Source: Pseudomonas sp. F1_0610
GTDB lineage: Bacteria; Pseudomonadota; Gammaproteobacteria; Pseudomonadales; Pseudomonadaceae
NCBI RefSeq assembly: GCF_047470865.1
Contig: NZ_JAZDRH010000008.1
Span: 37,165 to 101,164, forward strand
Direction of reading: 5' to 3'
Length of the DNA: 64,000 nt
The position numbers and the translations under genes were made by a program. The notes under the pieces were generated by a model that was not told the DNA's origin, ran no database searches, and saw only the letters and a list, made by a program, of their open reading frames with translations. This document shows, piece after piece, positions 30,115 to 36,916 of the stretch (the stretch's first letter is position 1; the number at the start of each line of letters is the position of its first letter).

Positions 30115-31335
30115 CTAACCTTTCACACAGACTACTTGGCGTAATGTATGCACAATTTCCACAAGGTCAGATTGTGCTTTCATCACGGCGTCAATGTCTT
30201 TATAAGCCATAGGTGTTTCGTCAATAACATCTTCGTCTTTTCGACACTCCACATGAGCCGTTGCCTTTTTATGGTCATCAATACTGAACACCGATTTTGC
30301 TTTGGTGCGACTCATAACACGGCCAGCACCATGGCTGCATGAGCAAAAGCTTTCTTGGTTACCTAAGCCGCGCACAATAAAGCTTTTTGCGCCCATGGAG
30401 CCAGGAATAATACCCAACTGTCCAGATCGCGCAGAAACGGCACCTTTACGGGTTACTAGCACATTCTCACCAAAGTGATTTTCACGTTGCACATAGTTAT
30501 GGTGGCAGTTCACTGCCTCTAAACGACTGACAAAGGGTTTAGTGATAACTGATGCCACTGCCGCCAATGTATGTTCCATCATAATTTCACGGTTTACACG
30601 GGCGAAGTTTTGCGCCCAGTCGACTGCTTCAATGTAGTCATCAAAGTAGCTTGTACCTTCTGGCAAGTACGCTAAGTCTTTATCGGGCAAGTTAATCATG
30701 TAGCGTTCCATTTCTTGACGCGCCAGCCCAATAAAGTGTGTACCAATAGCATTACCAACACCGCGTGAACCGCTATGCAGCATTACCCAAACAGTGTTTT
30801 CTTCATCCAAACACAGCTCAATAAAGTGATTCCCTGTTCCCAATGTACCAAGGTGCTTATGGTTATTGGTTTTCGCTAAATGAGGGTACTTTTGCGTTAT
30901 TTGCTCAAACTTTGGTAATAACGCTGCCCATTGTTCATCAATATAGTTTGAGGTTTTATTCCAAGCACCTACATCACGGCGAGAACGTCCAGCGGAACGT
31001 CCGTGAGGTACCGCCTTCTCAATGGCAGAGCGGATTGCAAATAGATTATCTGGTAAATCACTCGCGGTTAATGAAGTGCGTACTGCCATCATTCCACAAC
31101 CAATATCTACACCAACGGCTGCTGGAATAATAGCGCCCTTGGTTGGAATCACGCTGCCAATGGTTGAGCCTTTTCCTAAGTGTACATCTGGCATGACTGC
31201 CAAGTGCTTAAAGATAAATGGCATACGAGCTGTGTTTAACAACTGCTCTTTGGCTTTATCTTCAACTGGCACGCCATTGGTCCACATACGGATAGGGGCG
31301 CCGCCTTTTTCAAACAAGACTTCATGGTTAATCAT
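30115..31335 (-). CDS. rtcB: RNA-splicing ligase RtcB (3'-phosphate/5'-hydroxyl RNA ligase)
   Basis: 406 aa. Near-identical blocks to E. coli RtcB (MPFIFKHLAVMPDVHLGKGSTIGSVIPT, GTGNHFIE, SFCSCSHGAGR, LRQVVCVKG). ATGA overlap with the upstream gene. Confidence 0.95.
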   Translation of the reverse strand: MINHEVLFEKGGAPIRMWTNGVPVEDKAKEQLLNTARMPFIFKHLAVMPDVHLGKGSTIGSVIPTKGAIIPAAVGVDIGCGMMAVRTSLTASDLPDNLFAIRSAIEKAVPHGRSAGRSRRDVGAWNKTSNYIDEQWAALLPKFEQITQKYPHLAKTNNHKHLGTLGTGNHFIELCLDEENTVWVMLHSGSRGVGNAIGTHFIGLARQEMERYMINLPDKDLAYLPEGTSYFDDYIEAVDWAQNFARVNREIMMEHTLAAVASVITKPFVSRLEAVNCHHNYVQRENHFGENVLVTRKGAVSARSGQLGIIPGSMGAKSFIVRGLGNQESFCSCSHGAGRVMSRTKAKSVFSIDDHKKATAHVECRKDEDVIDETPMAYKDIDAVMKAQSDLVEIVHTLRQVVCVKG

Positions 31336-32669
31336 TTTGCTATTCCTTTTAAATTCACTAAGCCGTTAAGTACTTGGTCTAAACCGCCAAATACGGAAAT
31401 TTTGTCGATACGCTCACACACACGCTCTAAGGTTTCTAACTCTTTTAAACGCAGCGCCACAGGGTTGTTTTCCATCACTTTGGCGGTATTAAGCAAAGAG
31501 CGGGTGGCCGCTGTTTCTTCGCGACGACGAATCACATTGGCTTGTGCTGCTTTTTCAGCCTCTATCACGCTAGATAAAATGGTACGCATTTCACCTGGTA
31601 AGATAATATCTTTTACGCCCATTGAGCCTATCTCTAGGCCGTATTGCGGAATACTCTGGCTAAGCTGTTCCGTCACCTGCTGATCGATAATTTCTTTATT
31701 TTCTAGCAGCTCATCAAGGGTGCGCGTACCTACTATTTCACGCAGTGCAAATTGTACTTCACGGTATAAAAAAGCCTCTGCATCTTGCATTGCTGCCAAC
31801 GCAGTTAGCACATCGACATAACGCCAGTTGATGACGAAATTCAGGCGGATGCTGACTTTGTCCTTCGTTAGGATTTCCTGGCCCGACATATCCAACACGC
31901 GCAAGCGTGTATCCACGGACTGCACAGCTACCGTATTGTGATATGTCCAAAAACCATAACTACCTGCTGGTAGTACCTGTTTTACTTCATCATCAACTTT
32001 TAACACACCCAAATGCCATGCTGGCACTGTAGACAATAAAAGACTCTTGCTGTCGATAGCTTTTTTATTCATCAATGGGCGCAAGCCTTTAAGCAGTTCA
32101 GGTTTGATCTCTAACTCAGCTAACGAAACAAACTCAACTTGCTGCTGGCTACCATTTTTCCACCATAAATAGCGGCTATTAGGTTCTAACAGTTCAGTTA
32201 AAACACCATCGACATAGCGCAAGCCAACTTGATGCTCAGCAACCTGCACGTCAATGCAATATTGCTTTACCCAATCAGCATGCTGATGGCGCAAGTTGTT
32301 CGCTAGCTCTTGACTAATGGCTCGCGTATTTAAGTGATGAACTTCATGTTGCTGTTCAATGCCATTTTTCCAATACAAATGTTGACTTGCCGGCTCAAGC
32401 ACTTGGGTCAAACGTCCATCAACATAACGTAAAGCAATCTGGTTATTATTTAAATTCACTTCAATGCAATACTTCTCTACCCATGCTTTATGGAAGCGGC
32501 GCAACTCTTTAGCTACGTCATTGGGCACAGGTTGATCTAAATTAAATACAACATATGCTGGCTTAATTAGCCAAAAGCGATATTCGCCTGTAGTTAATAC
32601 ATGGCTAAAACCATCCTTGTTTCGAACAAGTGCAATTTCGTTATTCTTTATAGTTACTTTATTCAACAT
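31332..32669 (-). CDS. cytoplasmic SPFH/band-7 (slipin-like) protein with tandem N-terminal repeats
   Basis: C-terminal roughly 230 aa is a typical SPFH domain (LTKDKVSIRLNFVINWRYVD...GLEIGSMGVKDIILPGEMR...AEKAAQANVIRRRE). The N-terminus has three repeats of a roughly 65-aa unit (IALVRNKDGFSHVLTTGEYRFW / IALRYVDGRLTQVLEPASQHLYWKNG / VGLRYVDGVLTELLEPNSRYLWWKNG). No TM segment. Confidence 0.8.
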   Translation of the reverse strand: MLNKVTIKNNEIALVRNKDGFSHVLTTGEYRFWLIKPAYVVFNLDQPVPNDVAKELRRFHKAWVEKYCIEVNLNNNQIALRYVDGRLTQVLEPASQHLYWKNGIEQQHEVHHLNTRAISQELANNLRHQHADWVKQYCIDVQVAEHQVGLRYVDGVLTELLEPNSRYLWWKNGSQQQVEFVSLAELEIKPELLKGLRPLMNKKAIDSKSLLLSTVPAWHLGVLKVDDEVKQVLPAGSYGFWTYHNTVAVQSVDTRLRVLDMSGQEILTKDKVSIRLNFVINWRYVDVLTALAAMQDAEAFLYREVQFALREIVGTRTLDELLENKEIIDQQVTEQLSQSIPQYGLEIGSMGVKDIILPGEMRTILSSVIEAEKAAQANVIRRREETAATRSLLNTAKVMENNPVALRLKELETLERVCERIDKISVFGGLDQVLNGLVNLKGIAK

Positions 32670-32856
32670 TATTGATTCCTTTTAAATTAACAAAGCAGCG
32701 GACTGTGGTGCGAAACATAACGGGGGCTTGCCTAAATCTCAGGTTTGCTTGCGTTTTATTCGGCAGTTTTATCGGCTGCTTCGGTGTTGTGTGTCACTTA
32801 GCTCACAACTAAATACAAATTGATATAGTCCAATTAAAAAGCCTTGGAGACTTTTT

Positions 32857-32990
32857 TGGTGCCGTTTGTAGGAGTCGAACCTACTCTTTCATGCAGAACA
32901 CAAAGCAGAAACACCATCGCGTCGCTTTGAGCTACCTAAGTTCAAGAACTTATGGTCAAGGCAAAAGCAAAAGAAATACCTCTAACAGCA
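32857..32990 (-). ncRNA. tRNA-like RNA element (candidate Y-RNA/YrlA-like or tRNA-derived leader) at the 5' end of the rtc operon transcript
   Basis: The minus strand reads ...GUAGG-UUCGACU-CCUAC-AAACGGC-A-CCA: a canonical T-arm (GGTTCGACTCC), a 7-nt acceptor 3' strand, a discriminator and CCA. A 5' segment GCUGUU near the predicted TSS can pair with AACGGC. No canonical D-arm or anticodon arm was found. Sits between the sigma54 promoter and the first CDS. Boundaries are approximate. Confidence 0.45.
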
Positions 32991-33000
32991 AAATATATAG

Positions 33001-33016
33001 AGCGAAAAGCGTGCCA
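33001..33016 (-). promoter_or_regulatory. sigma54 (-24/-12) promoter for the rtc operon
   Basis: The minus strand reads TTGGCACGCTTTTCGCT, i.e. TGGCACG-N4-TCGC with correct GG-N10-GC spacing. It faces rtcB and is divergent from the sigma54 activator gene rtcR. Confidence 0.6.
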
Positions 33017-33133
33017 ACTTTTAAAAATTAAAATTAACTATTTGATTTATATAAGTATTTTATTTTGTAGCGACTTTTTATCTTGTCTTGGTTATAGTTG
33101 CATTTCTATCTTTTTAGATAACTATTTATAAAT

Positions 33134-34714
33134 ATGGATAAAAAATCTAACATTCTTATTGGATTACTAGGCGTTACACTAGATATGGCGGGTAGGCACA
33201 GGATTAATCGTTGGCGCCCTAGTTATTCCCTTTGTGCCCAACCAGACTTGCCTATTACACGCTTTGAAATGCTGTATCAGCCTCATTATTCGCGGTTAGC
33301 CCATCAAGTTAAGCGAGATATAGAACTACACAGCCCCCACACGCATGTGCAGCTTGTGCAAGTAGATATTGAAGATCCATGGGATTTAGAAGAGGTTTAC
33401 AACCACTTATTGGATTTTTGCCAGCAATATTCTTTTGATACAGATAACGAAAATTACCTGCTCAACATCACTACAGGCACCCATGTTGCGCAAATTTGCT
33501 GGTATCTGCTTAATGAAGCGCATTATATTCCTGCCCGTTTAATTCAAAGCTCACCCGCTAAAAACCTACCAGAACGAGGCTATGGCACTTATTCAATTAT
33601 CGACCTTGATTTAAGCCGTTACGACAAAATTGCCAGCCGTTTTTCTCAGCAAATTGACAACTCAATTGCGTTACTTAAAGACGGCATAGCCACGCGTAAC
33701 GTGCGCTTTAACAGCCTGATTGATCAAATAGAAAAAGTCGCGGTACGCTCACAAGCTCCCATGCTATTAACAGGGCCAACAGGTGCAGGTAAATCCTTTT
33801 TAGCACAGCGTATTTTTCAACTTAAGAAACAACGTCAAGCCTTAAAGGGTAAGTTCGTTTCAATAAACTGCGCCACTTTACGTGGTGATAACGCCATGTC
33901 TAGCTTATTTGGTCACAGCAAAGGCGCCTTTACTGGTGCTATTAGTGCTCGCCAAGGCTTACTGAAAGAAGCTGATCAAGGGGTTTTATTTTTAGATGAA
34001 ATAGGCGAGCTTGGGCTAGATGAGCAAGCCATGTTATTAACGGCCATCGAAAACAAATGCTTTATGCCTTATGGCAGTGATAAGACGGTTGAAAGCGACT
34101 TTCAGTTAATTGCTGGCACTAACCGCCATCTTCCTGATGAAGTGGCTGCTGGGCGTTTTCGGGAAGATTTATACGCACGGATAAATCTTTGGTCATTTCG
34201 CTTATTGGGTTTAGCTGAGCGCCCTGAAGATATTGAACCCAACCTTGATTACGAGCTACGCAAATACGAACAACAGCATCAAGTCAATATTCGTTTTAGC
34301 CAAGAAGCACGTCAGCGCTATCTGGCCTTTGCTTGCAGTAAAGCTGCTTTATGGAAAGGTAACTTTCGTGAACTAAGCGCTTCTATTACGCGCATGGTAA
34401 CCCTAGCAGAAGCCAGCTGTATTAGTGAAGAGCAAGTCAACGAAGAAATAGCTCGGTTACGTGCTGATTGGTACGCCAGCGTACCTGCCACTACAATTGA
34501 TCTTCCTGTAGAGCATGAACTGGACTTATTCGATCAGTATCAGCTACAAGGCGTACTAGACACATGCCGCCGCGCCAGCAGTTTATCCGATGCAGGCCGC
34601 CAGCTATTTGCTATATCACGCCAACAAAAAGCCAACCCAAATGATGCCGATCGACTGCGTAAATATTTGGCGAGGTTCGGTTTGGATTGGCAAGGACTAG
34701 AACAACAGCCTTAG
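33134..34714 (+). CDS. rtcR: sigma54-dependent transcriptional regulator RtcR (CARF-like N-domain + AAA+ sigma54-interaction domain)
   Basis: 526 aa, collinear with E. coli RtcR (WRPS..LC, HITTGTHVAQICWYLL, GPTGAGKSFLA, GAFTGA, ESDFQLIAGTNR). Confidence 0.9.
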   Translation: MDKKSNILIGLLGVTLDMAGRHRINRWRPSYSLCAQPDLPITRFEMLYQPHYSRLAHQVKRDIELHSPHTHVQLVQVDIEDPWDLEEVYNHLLDFCQQYSFDTDNENYLLNITTGTHVAQICWYLLNEAHYIPARLIQSSPAKNLPERGYGTYSIIDLDLSRYDKIASRFSQQIDNSIALLKDGIATRNVRFNSLIDQIEKVAVRSQAPMLLTGPTGAGKSFLAQRIFQLKKQRQALKGKFVSINCATLRGDNAMSSLFGHSKGAFTGAISARQGLLKEADQGVLFLDEIGELGLDEQAMLLTAIENKCFMPYGSDKTVESDFQLIAGTNRHLPDEVAAGRFREDLYARINLWSFRLLGLAERPEDIEPNLDYELRKYEQQHQVNIRFSQEARQRYLAFACSKAALWKGNFRELSASITRMVTLAEASCISEEQVNEEIARLRADWYASVPATTIDLPVEHELDLFDQYQLQGVLDTCRRASSLSDAGRQLFAISRQQKANPNDADRLRKYLARFGLDWQGLEQQP

Positions 34715-34735: not shown

Positions 34736-36916
34736 CTATGTAGCTAAGCGCTGAATAGCTTCATGAGCCTCTTCTTCGCCTTCATCATGCGCCAGTTGAT
34801 AAAGCGCCAAAGCACGCTCAAGATTTTTATCCACACCCTGCCCTGTTTCATACATAACTGCTAGATTGAACGCCGCCTGTGGATGTTTTTGCTCTATGGC
34901 TTTTTCATACCAGAATAAGGCTTGCTGGTAATCAACAGGTATTTCGTCGCCATGTTGGTACATCCAACCAAGGCTGTATTGTGCGCTGGCATCGCCCTGA
35001 TCAGCGGCCATTTTGTACCAGTGCATAGCCAAGTCAACATTACGCTCAGTGCCATGCGCATAGTCATACAGCAGTGCAAGGTTATACTGAGCATCGGCAT
35101 CTCCCTTTTCAGCAGCTTTGTTATACCAAAACAGAGCTTGTTGATAATCTTGTGCGACACCTTCACCCTCTTCATATAAACGCGCTAACCTAAACTGTGC
35201 AAGAACATGCCCGTTTAATGCTGCTTTGTTATACCACTCACTGGCTTGGGTTAAATCTTGTGCAACACCATCAGCATGTTGGTAGATATGGCCTAGATTG
35301 TACTGTGCTTTAGCATCATTTTGCGCTGCTGCGGCCTTATACCATTCGCGTGCTAGGGCCTTATTTTGTTCTACACCTTTACCTGAGGCATACGAGATAG
35401 CAAGATTATTCTGCGCTTCGGCAAAACCCAGCGCAGCTGCTTTTGTATAGTACTTTAGCGCCTGCTGAGAATCCTGTGTAACACCTTTACCTTCTTCGTA
35501 GAACACCCCTAGGTTATACAGCGCATTGGCTACATTTTGCTCGCCAGCAGCATGGTACCACTTAAGAGCAGTAGCCATATCAGGCTGAACATGCTCACCA
35601 TTTTTGTACATGACGGCAAGGTTAAATTGCGCTTCACCATGCCCTTGCTGTGCTGCTTGTTCAAACCAACTAAAGCCTTTGGCTAAATCAACAGTAACGC
35701 CTCGACCTTCCGTATAGATAAGTCCTAAAGCATTTTGAGCATCTGCATCCTTTTGCTCTGCCGCTTTCAGATACCATTGCAAAGCTAGTTGGCTATCTTG
35801 CGCAACGCCTTTTCCATCACGATAACTTTCGCCCAACAAACATTGTGCTGCGGCATTACCTTGGGCGGCCAAACGGTGCGCCAAAGTCACTGCTTTTAGG
35901 TAAGCGTCATTGGCTAGCTGAGTGTTTTGTGCAACACCCTGACCTTTTTGGTACAAATCACCCAGCATAAACAGTGCAATAAGGTCATCCTGCTCAGCTG
36001 CTTGCTTAAACCAAGCAAAGGCTTCAACCCAATCAATGGCAACTTGCTTTCCTTCACTGTAGATAAAACCTAGACTGCGCTGAGCTATGGGGCTATTCTG
36101 GTCTGCTGCCGCCTGATAGAGCTGTATGGCTTTGGCGATGTCTTGCTTAACTCCTTTGCCTTGCTGGTACAAAGAGGCTAATAAACGTTGCGCATCCGCA
36201 TCACCTTGAGCGGCAGCCTTTTCATACCAAAAAGCTGCTTTTTCATAGCTTTGCTCTACGCCTGTACCTTCACGATGCAGGTCGCCCAGCATACATTGCC
36301 CATCAGCATCACCATTCCTAGCAGCGCGCTGTAACCAATATGCAGCTTTGCTATAACTTTGCTCTACGCCTTTTCCATCACGATATAGCCAGCCCAACAT
36401 CGCCTGTGCGCCTGCATCTTTTTGATTGGCGGCCAGCAACAGCCAGCGTTGTGCTTCAATAAGGTTCTGAGCTACGCCAGTGGCCTCCAGATAACAAGTG
36501 CCTAGTGCATATTGCGCAGGCGCGTAATCTTGCTGAGCCGACAGCTGAAACCAATGCACCGCCTGCTCCGCATTCTGTGCTACACCTTCTCCAGCCTCAT
36601 AGCAACAGCCCAGCCTATATTGTGCCTGCACATGATTGCGCTGAGCCGCTTGGGTTAGCCAAAAAGCTGCATTTTTATAGTCGTTTTGCTCTCTATACAG
36701 AACAGCTAACGCCCATTGTGCTGATAAGTTGTGTTTTTTACTTGCTGTAAGAAATAAAGCCAGCGCTTGTTGGCGCTCAGTGGCACTACATTCTCCACCA
36801 TTGTAAAGGTCAACACCTTGCGCATACTCTTTTTCCGCTGCAACCCTCTTTTGTTCTGTAGGGACTCGTGCGAAGAAGGCTTTCATCGTGTTAATTAGTT
36901 GATCTCCAAATCCCAT
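34736..36916 (-). CDS. Sel1-repeat (SLR) protein, about 18 repeats, no signal peptide
   Basis: 726 aa almost entirely made of roughly 36-aa Sel1-like repeats (A.Q..LG..Y..G.GV.QD...A..WY.KAA.QG). Convergent with rtcR, 21-bp gap. Confidence 0.8.
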   Translation of the reverse strand: MGFGDQLINTMKAFFARVPTEQKRVAAEKEYAQGVDLYNGGECSATERQQALALFLTASKKHNLSAQWALAVLYREQNDYKNAAFWLTQAAQRNHVQAQYRLGCCYEAGEGVAQNAEQAVHWFQLSAQQDYAPAQYALGTCYLEATGVAQNLIEAQRWLLLAANQKDAGAQAMLGWLYRDGKGVEQSYSKAAYWLQRAARNGDADGQCMLGDLHREGTGVEQSYEKAAFWYEKAAAQGDADAQRLLASLYQQGKGVKQDIAKAIQLYQAAADQNSPIAQRSLGFIYSEGKQVAIDWVEAFAWFKQAAEQDDLIALFMLGDLYQKGQGVAQNTQLANDAYLKAVTLAHRLAAQGNAAAQCLLGESYRDGKGVAQDSQLALQWYLKAAEQKDADAQNALGLIYTEGRGVTVDLAKGFSWFEQAAQQGHGEAQFNLAVMYKNGEHVQPDMATALKWYHAAGEQNVANALYNLGVFYEEGKGVTQDSQQALKYYTKAAALGFAEAQNNLAISYASGKGVEQNKALAREWYKAAAAQNDAKAQYNLGHIYQHADGVAQDLTQASEWYNKAALNGHVLAQFRLARLYEEGEGVAQDYQQALFWYNKAAEKGDADAQYNLALLYDYAHGTERNVDLAMHWYKMAADQGDASAQYSLGWMYQHGDEIPVDYQQALFWYEKAIEQKHPQAAFNLAVMYETGQGVDKNLERALALYQLAHDEGEEEAHEAIQRLAT

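Follow-up and report, generated by a model that had tools for sequence, protein, structure and literature searches.

The element described here bears on the substrates of bacterial RtcB repair operons and on the roles of the RNAs co-encoded with them (YrlA/YrlB, b7a-tRNA). RtcR is activated by damaged transfer RNA (tRNA) fragments with cyclic phosphate ends (PMC7790460), transfer-messenger RNA (tmRNA) is a target of RtcB ligation in E. coli (PMC9650030), and PaFlo8 of P. aeruginosa is an SPFH protein embedded in an rtc locus (PMC13086221). The described RNA closest to the one reported here is the b7a-tRNA, predicted next to Band-7 and RtcB genes according to the passage on it in a preprint that cites Burroughs and Aravind 2016 (Wang et al., bioRxiv 10.1101/312249); the same passage presents it as without experimental validation as of 2018 and as possibly redundant with YrlA. 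It goes unmentioned in the other papers found by a literature search whose scope did not take in the 2016 primary description, and this tRNA-like class has no Rfam family. Here we describe a tRNA-like element on the minus strand of a 64,000-nucleotide (nt) stretch of Pseudomonas sp. F1_0610 (contig NZ_JAZDRH010000008.1; hereafter the window), in the leader of a slipin-rtcB operon. The element is a genuine tRNA-like non-coding RNA, strongly conserved and encoded at the head of an RNA-repair operon, and very probably this genome's copy of the Band-7-associated tRNA-like RNA, the b7a-tRNA class.

The element reads GUAGG-UUCGACU-CCUAC-AAACGGC-A-CCA (32884-32857), that is, a T arm with a canonical T loop, a 7-nt acceptor 3' strand, a discriminator and CCA, just as the original prediction had described it (Table 1). 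GGTTCGANTCC occurs once in the 64-kb window, against 0.02 copies expected from shuffles. No D arm, anticodon arm or 7-nt loop was found, and the view that this is not an ordinary tRNA gene holds, as the window copy has no cloverleaf given that ARAGORN and the Rfam tRNA model (RF00005) were both negative. The sole TGGCAC-N5-TYGC site in the window lies at 33016-33002 on the minus strand and represents a sigma54 (-24/-12) promoter; with the standard spacing from this site, transcription is predicted to start (+1) at ~32990/32989, the U/G opening GCUGUU, which places the element first behind the promoter, as had been proposed. GCUGUU pairs with 32862-32867 (G-C, C-G, U-G, G-C, U-A, U-A), a complementarity likewise noted before, and in the predicted fold of the 133-nt RNA the minimum free energy (MFE) structure and the centroid both close this terminal stem and form the T arm, with ensemble pair probabilities of 0.81-1.0 and 0.95 for the terminal and T stems, respectively. 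From +1 to the T stem there are 104 nt.

A protein search for window-type relatives yielded one close homologue of the slipin (85% identical), located on a Logan assembly contig (L001), the next best matches reaching 54-56%; the slipin also matched a protein of Pseudomonas sp. F1_0610 at 100% identity. The loci of P0006, P0013 and P0026 have leaders of other types, and a metagenome scan with GTAGGTTCGANTCCTAC-N8-CCAAAA matched 120 sites, all of them ordinary tRNA genes and none a window-type relative. L001, the sole close relative, matches the window without exception between the first G of GCUGUU and the final C of AAACGGC (32861-32989, 129/129 positions), while DNA identity is 81% in the slipin gene, 92% in rtcB and 89% in rtcR; for intergenic DNA it is 75% from the promoter to +1, 74% downstream of the element and 74-92% overall elsewhere, and for the flanks of the block 75-92%. 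The mismatches closest to the block fall at 32992 (2 nt upstream of +1) and at 32860, the discriminator (A to U), so that the edges of the fully conserved block fit the proposed RNA. This comparison shows purifying selection on the element to be much stronger than on the genes around it.

Related leaders were collected with a profile of slipin homologues, which gave 80 loci from Enterobacterales, Pseudomonas, Orbaceae (Gilliamella), Burkholderiales and Neisseriaceae. Nearly all of these carry one or two T-arm motifs (GGTTCGAnTCC) in the leader, and up to four were seen (L086); at most loci a sigma54 promoter lies upstream of the T arm at a fixed, lineage-specific distance. Among 84 related loci, a divergent rtcR was found at 69, a downstream rtcB at 68, and both at 60, and the tRNA-like element always sits in the 5' leader behind the promoter, never as a separate gene. 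Many of the related units are called as tRNAs by ARAGORN, with arbitrary anticodons or 'anticodons' of 2 or 4 nt, in some leaders as tandem, abutting cloverleaves, and some reach 33-58 bits with the Rfam tRNA model. An alignment of 24 slipin-proximal units (A5) forms a cloverleaf with conserved D and T arms, in which 98.4% of cells are paired versus 36-45% with the partners slid, and 84 cells are compensatory versus 24 in shuffles (0/500). All five pairs of its anticodon stem covary and the loop is unconserved, at 4-8 nt; anticodon loops of related units are often UUCG tetraloops. Across 116 T-arm units we counted 30 different complementary T-stem combinations, and the related acceptor stems are complementary at 7/7 positions in many different sequences. 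N-CCA follows the acceptor strand in 20 of the 116 units, with ~2 expected, and its carriers include the window, L001, Gilliamella, Proteus and the Xenorhabdus-like L085; as a pattern in the sequences, this enrichment suggests a tRNA-like end that may be excised.

The related units come in several forms. In full cloverleaves the acceptor 5' strand lies 39-42 nt before the T stem, and in 'short', minihelix-like units 13-29 nt before it; the latter occur as unit 1 in Burkholderiales, and also in many Enterobacterales and in L085 and L088. A further form, in which the T arm is followed by a loop-closed hairpin, is that of E. coli, Citrobacter and Klebsiella; in E. coli this hairpin stands where an open acceptor stem would otherwise be. 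Of 5426 complete E. coli genomes, 1632 (~30%) carry the leader, with no annotated feature beneath it. At these loci (L002/L003/L089; L089 4001-6246) the sigma54 leader is followed by genes for the slipin and an RlaP-type nucleotidyltransferase, neither rtcR nor rtcB is adjacent, and a zeta-toxin gene adjoins. Xenorhabdus-type operons (L004 6572-9263; L085 4072-6575) have the order slipin-RtcB-RlaP-KptA/Tpt1 (2'-phosphotransferase), with a gene for a metallo-beta-lactamase-fold (Anti-Pycsar Apyc1-like) protein beyond rtcR. In several metagenome-assembled genomes (MAGs) of Burkholderiales, 2 to 12 ordinary-looking tRNA genes stand directly before the slipin leader, replacing the divergent rtcR, and because of this adjacency the arrays appear tied to the slipin-RtcB module. 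In L086/L087 (1623-2500), without adjacent RtcB or RtcR genes, a leader of ~870 nt contains four T-arm modules, one after the 5' domain, two cloverleaves, and a fourth (GCGGGUUCGAGUCCCGC-CAUGCUC-A-CCA) that immediately precedes the slipin start. This last unit has a perfect 7-nt partner ~170 nt upstream and, judging from the sequence, may be another tRNA-like unit with a large insert; we did not retain it as a second case of distal closure (GAGCAUG ... CAUGCUC-A-CCA), given that an alternative partner exists and the pairing is ambiguous.

The class sits within a larger sigma54 leader, made of a ~115-nt 5' domain, tRNA-like units numbering one to four, and a 3' hairpin domain. Transcripts of Pseudomonas and Burkholderiales open, at the sigma54 start, with a ~115-nt three-way-junction domain (GGUGC...GCAUGCCGC), 14 of whose 23 pairs carry compensatory changes. 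This domain is absent from Rfam, and a covariance model of it detects it in 52 loci at E<1e-4, each time where it is expected. The Enterobacterales counterpart is diverged, with model matches of 12-14 bits at the right place, and in all three groups this 5' domain is self-closed and the tRNA-like unit comes after it. The 3' domain is a long irregular hairpin (GCCGRUAA...GCAGGCAAAA...UUCCCCUG...CUUCGC) common to the window and Enterobacteriaceae, with compensatory changes in 14 of 22 predicted pairs, 95% identity between the window and L001, and no Rfam match. The T arm and ACCAAAAA tail of the window copy are nearly identical to those of the Gilliamella units, which are full cloverleaves. This Gilliamella-like T arm and tail, together with the downstream hairpin homologous to that of Enterobacteriaceae, mark the window copy as very probably the same leader RNA; an nhmmer profile of related leaders matched the window in the T-arm/CCA part only (E 0.018).

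Within this class, the window copy is a reduced, derived variant that keeps the acceptor-like stem, the T arm and CCA, with ~90 nt replacing the D and anticodon arms. In this lineage the unit appears to have shrunk to an acceptor/T-arm minihelix. On visual comparison, GUGUUCUGCAUGAAAGAG looks like the stretch that ends the 5' domain in L085 (GUAUUCCGCCAGUGAGGGAC), with the T stem following at once, and we hypothesize a 'circular permutation' in which the acceptor 5' strand and linker would have moved from behind the 5' domain, where L085 has them, to the 5' end of the transcript (GCUGUU-AGAGGUAUU). The linker resembles the acceptor-to-T-arm linker of Proteus short units (AAGAGGGUUAUUU), a likeness that is not significant (p ~0.08). 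The A/U-rich hairpin directly after CCA can still form in L001 despite two substitutions; a terminator scan made no call there and found no terminator/anti-terminator alternative. Judging from its sequence, this hairpin may be a processing or pause site.

The operon that follows is slipin-rtcB, without rtcA, the slipin gene starting 190 nt downstream of the element. The locus has a -24/-12 promoter, a divergent RtcR with CARF-like and sigma54 AAA+ domains, and RtcB, the features of an RtcR/sigma54-controlled rtc operon, and from the promoter and gene layout we predict control by RtcR. The original prediction had placed the element in an rtc operon; the slipin partner had gone unnoticed. Its statement that no Ro protein is encoded here stands: no Ro/TROVE protein was found in the operon (slipin, RtcB) or among its neighbours (RtcR, LysR, a Sel1-repeat protein), the TROVE screen having covered this part of the window. 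The Sel1-repeat protein, just beyond rtcR (34736-36916, minus strand), has 726 amino acids and consists almost wholly of Sel1 repeats (16; Pfam 3.5e-153).

For the slipin, an AlphaFold model (pLDDT, the model's confidence score, 78.7) comprises three N-terminal repeats, an SPFH domain and a long helix, without an N-terminal hydrophobic helix, and thus suggests a soluble protein. The repeats (residues 1-200) measure ~70 amino acids each, with five strands and two helices, and had no match in Pfam or PDB sequence searches. The best structural matches were stomatin, HflK/C and prohibitin, with major vault protein (MVP) also among the matches; SPFH proteins in the matched structures build large rings or cages. 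As modelled, with repeats, an SPFH domain, a long helix and no transmembrane segment, the protein is loosely like MVP in architecture, and one may speculate that the slipin could form a cytoplasmic ring or cage together with the RNA. Comparison with the vault ribonucleoprotein (RNP) has its limits: stomatin, HflK/C and prohibitin match the SPFH part better than MVP does, the N-terminal repeats belong to no sequence family, and vault RNA is not tRNA-like in this way.

Table 1. Features of the leader and its neighbours in the window, and of related loci where a locus is named.
Feature	Position	Strand	Basis or remark
T-stem 5' strand GUAGG	32884-32880	-	sequence
T-loop UUCGACU	32879-32873	-	sequence
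T-stem 3' strand CCUAC	32872-32868	-	sequence
Acceptor 3' strand AAACGGC	32867-32861	-	sequence
Discriminator A	32860	-	sequence; U in L001
CCA	32859-32857	-	sequence; kept in L001
sigma54 (-24/-12) promoter TGGCACgctttTCGC	33002..33016	-	15/15 identical in L001
tRNA-like RNA, 133 nt, predicted +1 G to CCA	32857..32989	-	sequence, fold, conservation
Acceptor-like 5' strand GCUGUU	32984..32989	-	at predicted transcription start
Linker AGAGGUAUU with GG, possible D-loop substitute	32975..32983	-	resembles Proteus linker
~90-nt insert replacing D and anticodon arms	32885..32974	-	hairpins H1, H2 in MFE
Hairpin H1	32934-32956	-	MFE
Hairpin H2	32895-32933	-	MFE
A/U-rich hairpin AAAAAGUC-uccaa-GGCUUUUU, directly after CCA	32836..32856	-	read from sequence
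Second leader domain (3' hairpin domain), long irregular hairpin GCCGAUAAAA...GCAAGCAAA	32694..32780	-	ends ~25 nt before slipin ribosome binding site
Slipin (SPFH/Band-7), 445 amino acids, no predicted transmembrane helix	31332..32669	-	three N-terminal beta-rich repeats
RtcB RNA ligase; start overlaps slipin stop	30115..31335	-	Pfam RtcB 3.7e-135
rtcR, divergent sigma54 enhancer-binding activator	33134..34714	+	Pfam RtcR 1.5e-72; Sigma54_activat 4.3e-49
5' three-way-junction domain, examples	L009 3463-3577; L046 3503-3622		
tRNA arrays before slipin leader	L056 2145-2705; L070 2240-2700; L071 892-1688; L072 153-2031		
tRNA arrays before slipin leader, others	L082 2226-2842; L084 78-2617; L061 2457-2798; L054 2485-2747		

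Compared with the b7a-tRNA as described, the window copy lies beside a Band-7/SPFH gene in an RtcB-type RNA-repair cluster, has a T arm with a canonical T loop, a 6-bp acceptor-like stem and a 3' ACCA, and would share the proposed role of an RNA cofactor of the RNA-repair module. It differs in not being a cloverleaf 'strongly resembling an authentic tRNA', as its relatives are, and in consisting of 133 nt with no D or anticodon arm and an acceptor closed by the 5' end of the transcript. The analogy to Y RNAs (YrlA) drawn by the original prediction survives at the level of the system: in both cases an RtcB operon under RtcR control encodes, next to a putative scaffold protein, a tRNA-like module that has a T arm and in which other structure replaces the anticodon region. 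It fails at the level of family membership, in that the suggested covariance-model check with Rfam YrlA (RF02553) gave no match in the window at E<=10 and at best 17.7 bits among relatives, against a gathering score of 69, and no Ro60/Rsr gene is present in the operon. The outer stem of YrlA is its Ro-binding stem. In the Rfam consensus this outer stem is formed by the RNA ends and the acceptor-like stem is a closed hairpin, whereas in the window the RNA ends form the acceptor stem and leave a free ACCA; in the E. coli/Citrobacter relatives, a loop-closed hairpin does come after the T arm.

Two further RNAs bear comparison. With tmRNA (SsrA) the window RNA shares topology only, namely an acceptor 5' strand, a short, stemless D-loop substitute, a long insert, the T arm, the acceptor 3' strand and ACCA. 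It is not a tmRNA: ARAGORN was negative, there is no tag open reading frame and there are no pseudoknots, the 3:70 pair is U-G instead of the G-U alanine identity pair, and the RNA is far shorter; we claim no common ancestry. The mascRNA of MALAT1 is similarly a tRNA-like fold in a longer transcript, possibly excised by tRNA-processing enzymes, and its model gives a weak match (19 bits) to one of the short units from Burkholderia. But mascRNA is eukaryotic and unrelated, and the analogy is one of mechanism only.

We propose that RtcR and sigma54 co-induce the RNA with the slipin and RtcB, as the 5' part of the slipin-rtcB transcript, that tRNA end-processing enzymes would free it from the mRNA at CCA, and that the freed RNA would act in trans with a slipin oligomer and RtcB as an adaptor or scaffold presenting a tRNA elbow and acceptor, much like the role proposed for YrlA with Ro60 in the Salmonella rsr-yrlBA-rtcBA operon. 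For the fold, we consider it reasonably probable that the transcript's own 5' end closes the acceptor (distal closure), the best-supported model, favoured because of its ensemble probability, the position of the stem at +1 and the boundary of the conserved block. The trans-acting RNP role is more tentative, and we would put it somewhat short of an even chance; the reading as a whole, identity, topology and role blended, we hold to be slightly the better bet. A bolder form of it, in which a minimal, rewired tRNA mimic of tmRNA-like topology (the minihelix with CCA and its 90-nt insert) would, once excised, load into or dock on a soluble, cage-forming SPFH protein built like the vault protein, to give an RtcR-inducible bacterial 'vault-like' RNP organizing RtcB-dependent repair, seems quite unlikely to us; if true, the one to four units, varied in form from lineage to lineage, would be different ways to present the same elbow/acceptor surface.

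Several observations weigh against the reading proposed above. ARAGORN reported neither a tRNA nor a tmRNA in the window, and Rfam gave nothing at gathering score across the whole window and nothing relevant at E<=10 in 32500-33300. The fold check suggested by the original prediction did return the terminal stem and the T arm; the fold of the 133-nt RNA as a whole is modestly better than shuffles (z -1.9). Chance alone should give ~2-3 complements of 6/7 to the acceptor 3' strand in every 200 nt (an estimate from the partner scan), and the GCUGUU match is notable solely by its position exactly at the predicted start (our own estimate, p ~0.03). A closing helix for the insert, UCUUUUGC/GCAugAAAGA, drawn by analogy only, was rejected at an ensemble p of ~0.002 and -34.2 vs -38.5 kcal/mol. 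On the window, the covariance model of the 5' domain (CM R1) scored <0 bits, which is no match, and pairwise comparison of the 90-nt insert with the family 5' domain reached z <=3.1, leaving homology unsupported. The conservation expected at orthologous loci was borne out for the T arm, which is conserved and whose stems covary across relatives; the terminal stem shows no variation, L001 as the sole window-type relative being identical across it. At the level of function, all steps are ones that we infer, and a cis-only role is equally compatible with the conservation, since the RNA always lies within an mRNA leader.

The same class of RNA could have another fold, which is possible if unlikely: the acceptor 3' strand would pair with GGUGUUU (32914-32908), 24 nt upstream of the T stem and likewise a 6/7 partner, or would stay unpaired, and GCUGUU would belong to a separate 5' domain, as the self-closed 5' domain before the tRNA-like unit in Pseudomonas, Burkholderiales and Enterobacterales would lead one to expect. 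However, this proximal pairing contains an internal G.G mismatch and competes with hairpin H2, GCUGUUAGAGG finds no complement upstream of the T arm, the distal stem has an ensemble p >=0.8, and the 100% conserved block begins at GCUGUU. That the element is instead an attachment-site (att) remnant, an option that the original prediction had raised, or a decaying pseudo-tRNA without function, readings with which a T arm, acceptor 3' strand and CCA lacking a cloverleaf would agree, we regard as having next to no chance of being right: in ~80 species from two classes of proteobacteria the same module is found at this point of the operon, 129/129 positions are conserved while neighbouring sequence diverges, and no integrase is encoded among the genes near the element. 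Both chance and an att remnant are thus excluded for practical purposes.

The RNA might also remain on the mRNA as a cis-acting leader or sensor controlling slipin/rtcB expression, for instance as a processing or stability determinant, or serve there as bait, cut by stress- or toxin-activated tRNA nucleases so that cyclic-phosphate fragments feed the CARF domain of RtcR or need RtcB repair before translation. The constant location in the 5' leader directly behind the RtcR/sigma54 promoter would fit such a role, as would the second covariation-supported hairpin that follows and the response of RtcR to tRNA fragments with cyclic phosphate ends (PMC7790460). We nevertheless think it unlikely: encoded-CCA enrichment and tandem abutting cloverleaves look like excised tRNA-type products, the scan found no terminator/anti-terminator alternative, and, as to bait, the window copy offers anticodon nucleases no anticodon loop, and YrlA fragments went undetected in Salmonella after mitomycin C, so YrlA is no substrate of that nuclease. 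More improbable still is a decoy or competitive inhibitor that soaks up tRNA-targeting toxins or tRNA-modifying or processing enzymes under stress, or a built-in RtcB substrate that is cut and re-ligated; the original prediction had listed a built-in RtcB substrate/decoy among its alternatives. Hughes et al. raised the inhibitor idea for YrlA, and the conservation of the elbow (D and T loops) and acceptor, with anticodon loops free to vary, agrees with it; the arbitrary, often UUCG, anticodon loops speak against mimicry of anticodon-nuclease targets, as does a window copy that has lost this arm.

Taken together, the element is a Band-7 analogue of YrlA and not a Y RNA, and a structural variant of the predicted b7a-tRNA class. 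The Band-7-linked tRNA-like RNA is widespread, with ~80 gamma- and betaproteobacterial species sampled, strongly selected and absent from Rfam. The window variant shows that the class can do without the cloverleaf while retaining T arm, acceptor and CCA, which narrows down the surface likely to matter for function; candidate partners that may recognize the acceptor or elbow include RNase P, the CCA-adding enzyme, RtcB and the slipin. Tractable carriers of the class include E. coli isolates, P. aeruginosa PA14 (PaFlo8), Proteus and Xenorhabdus.

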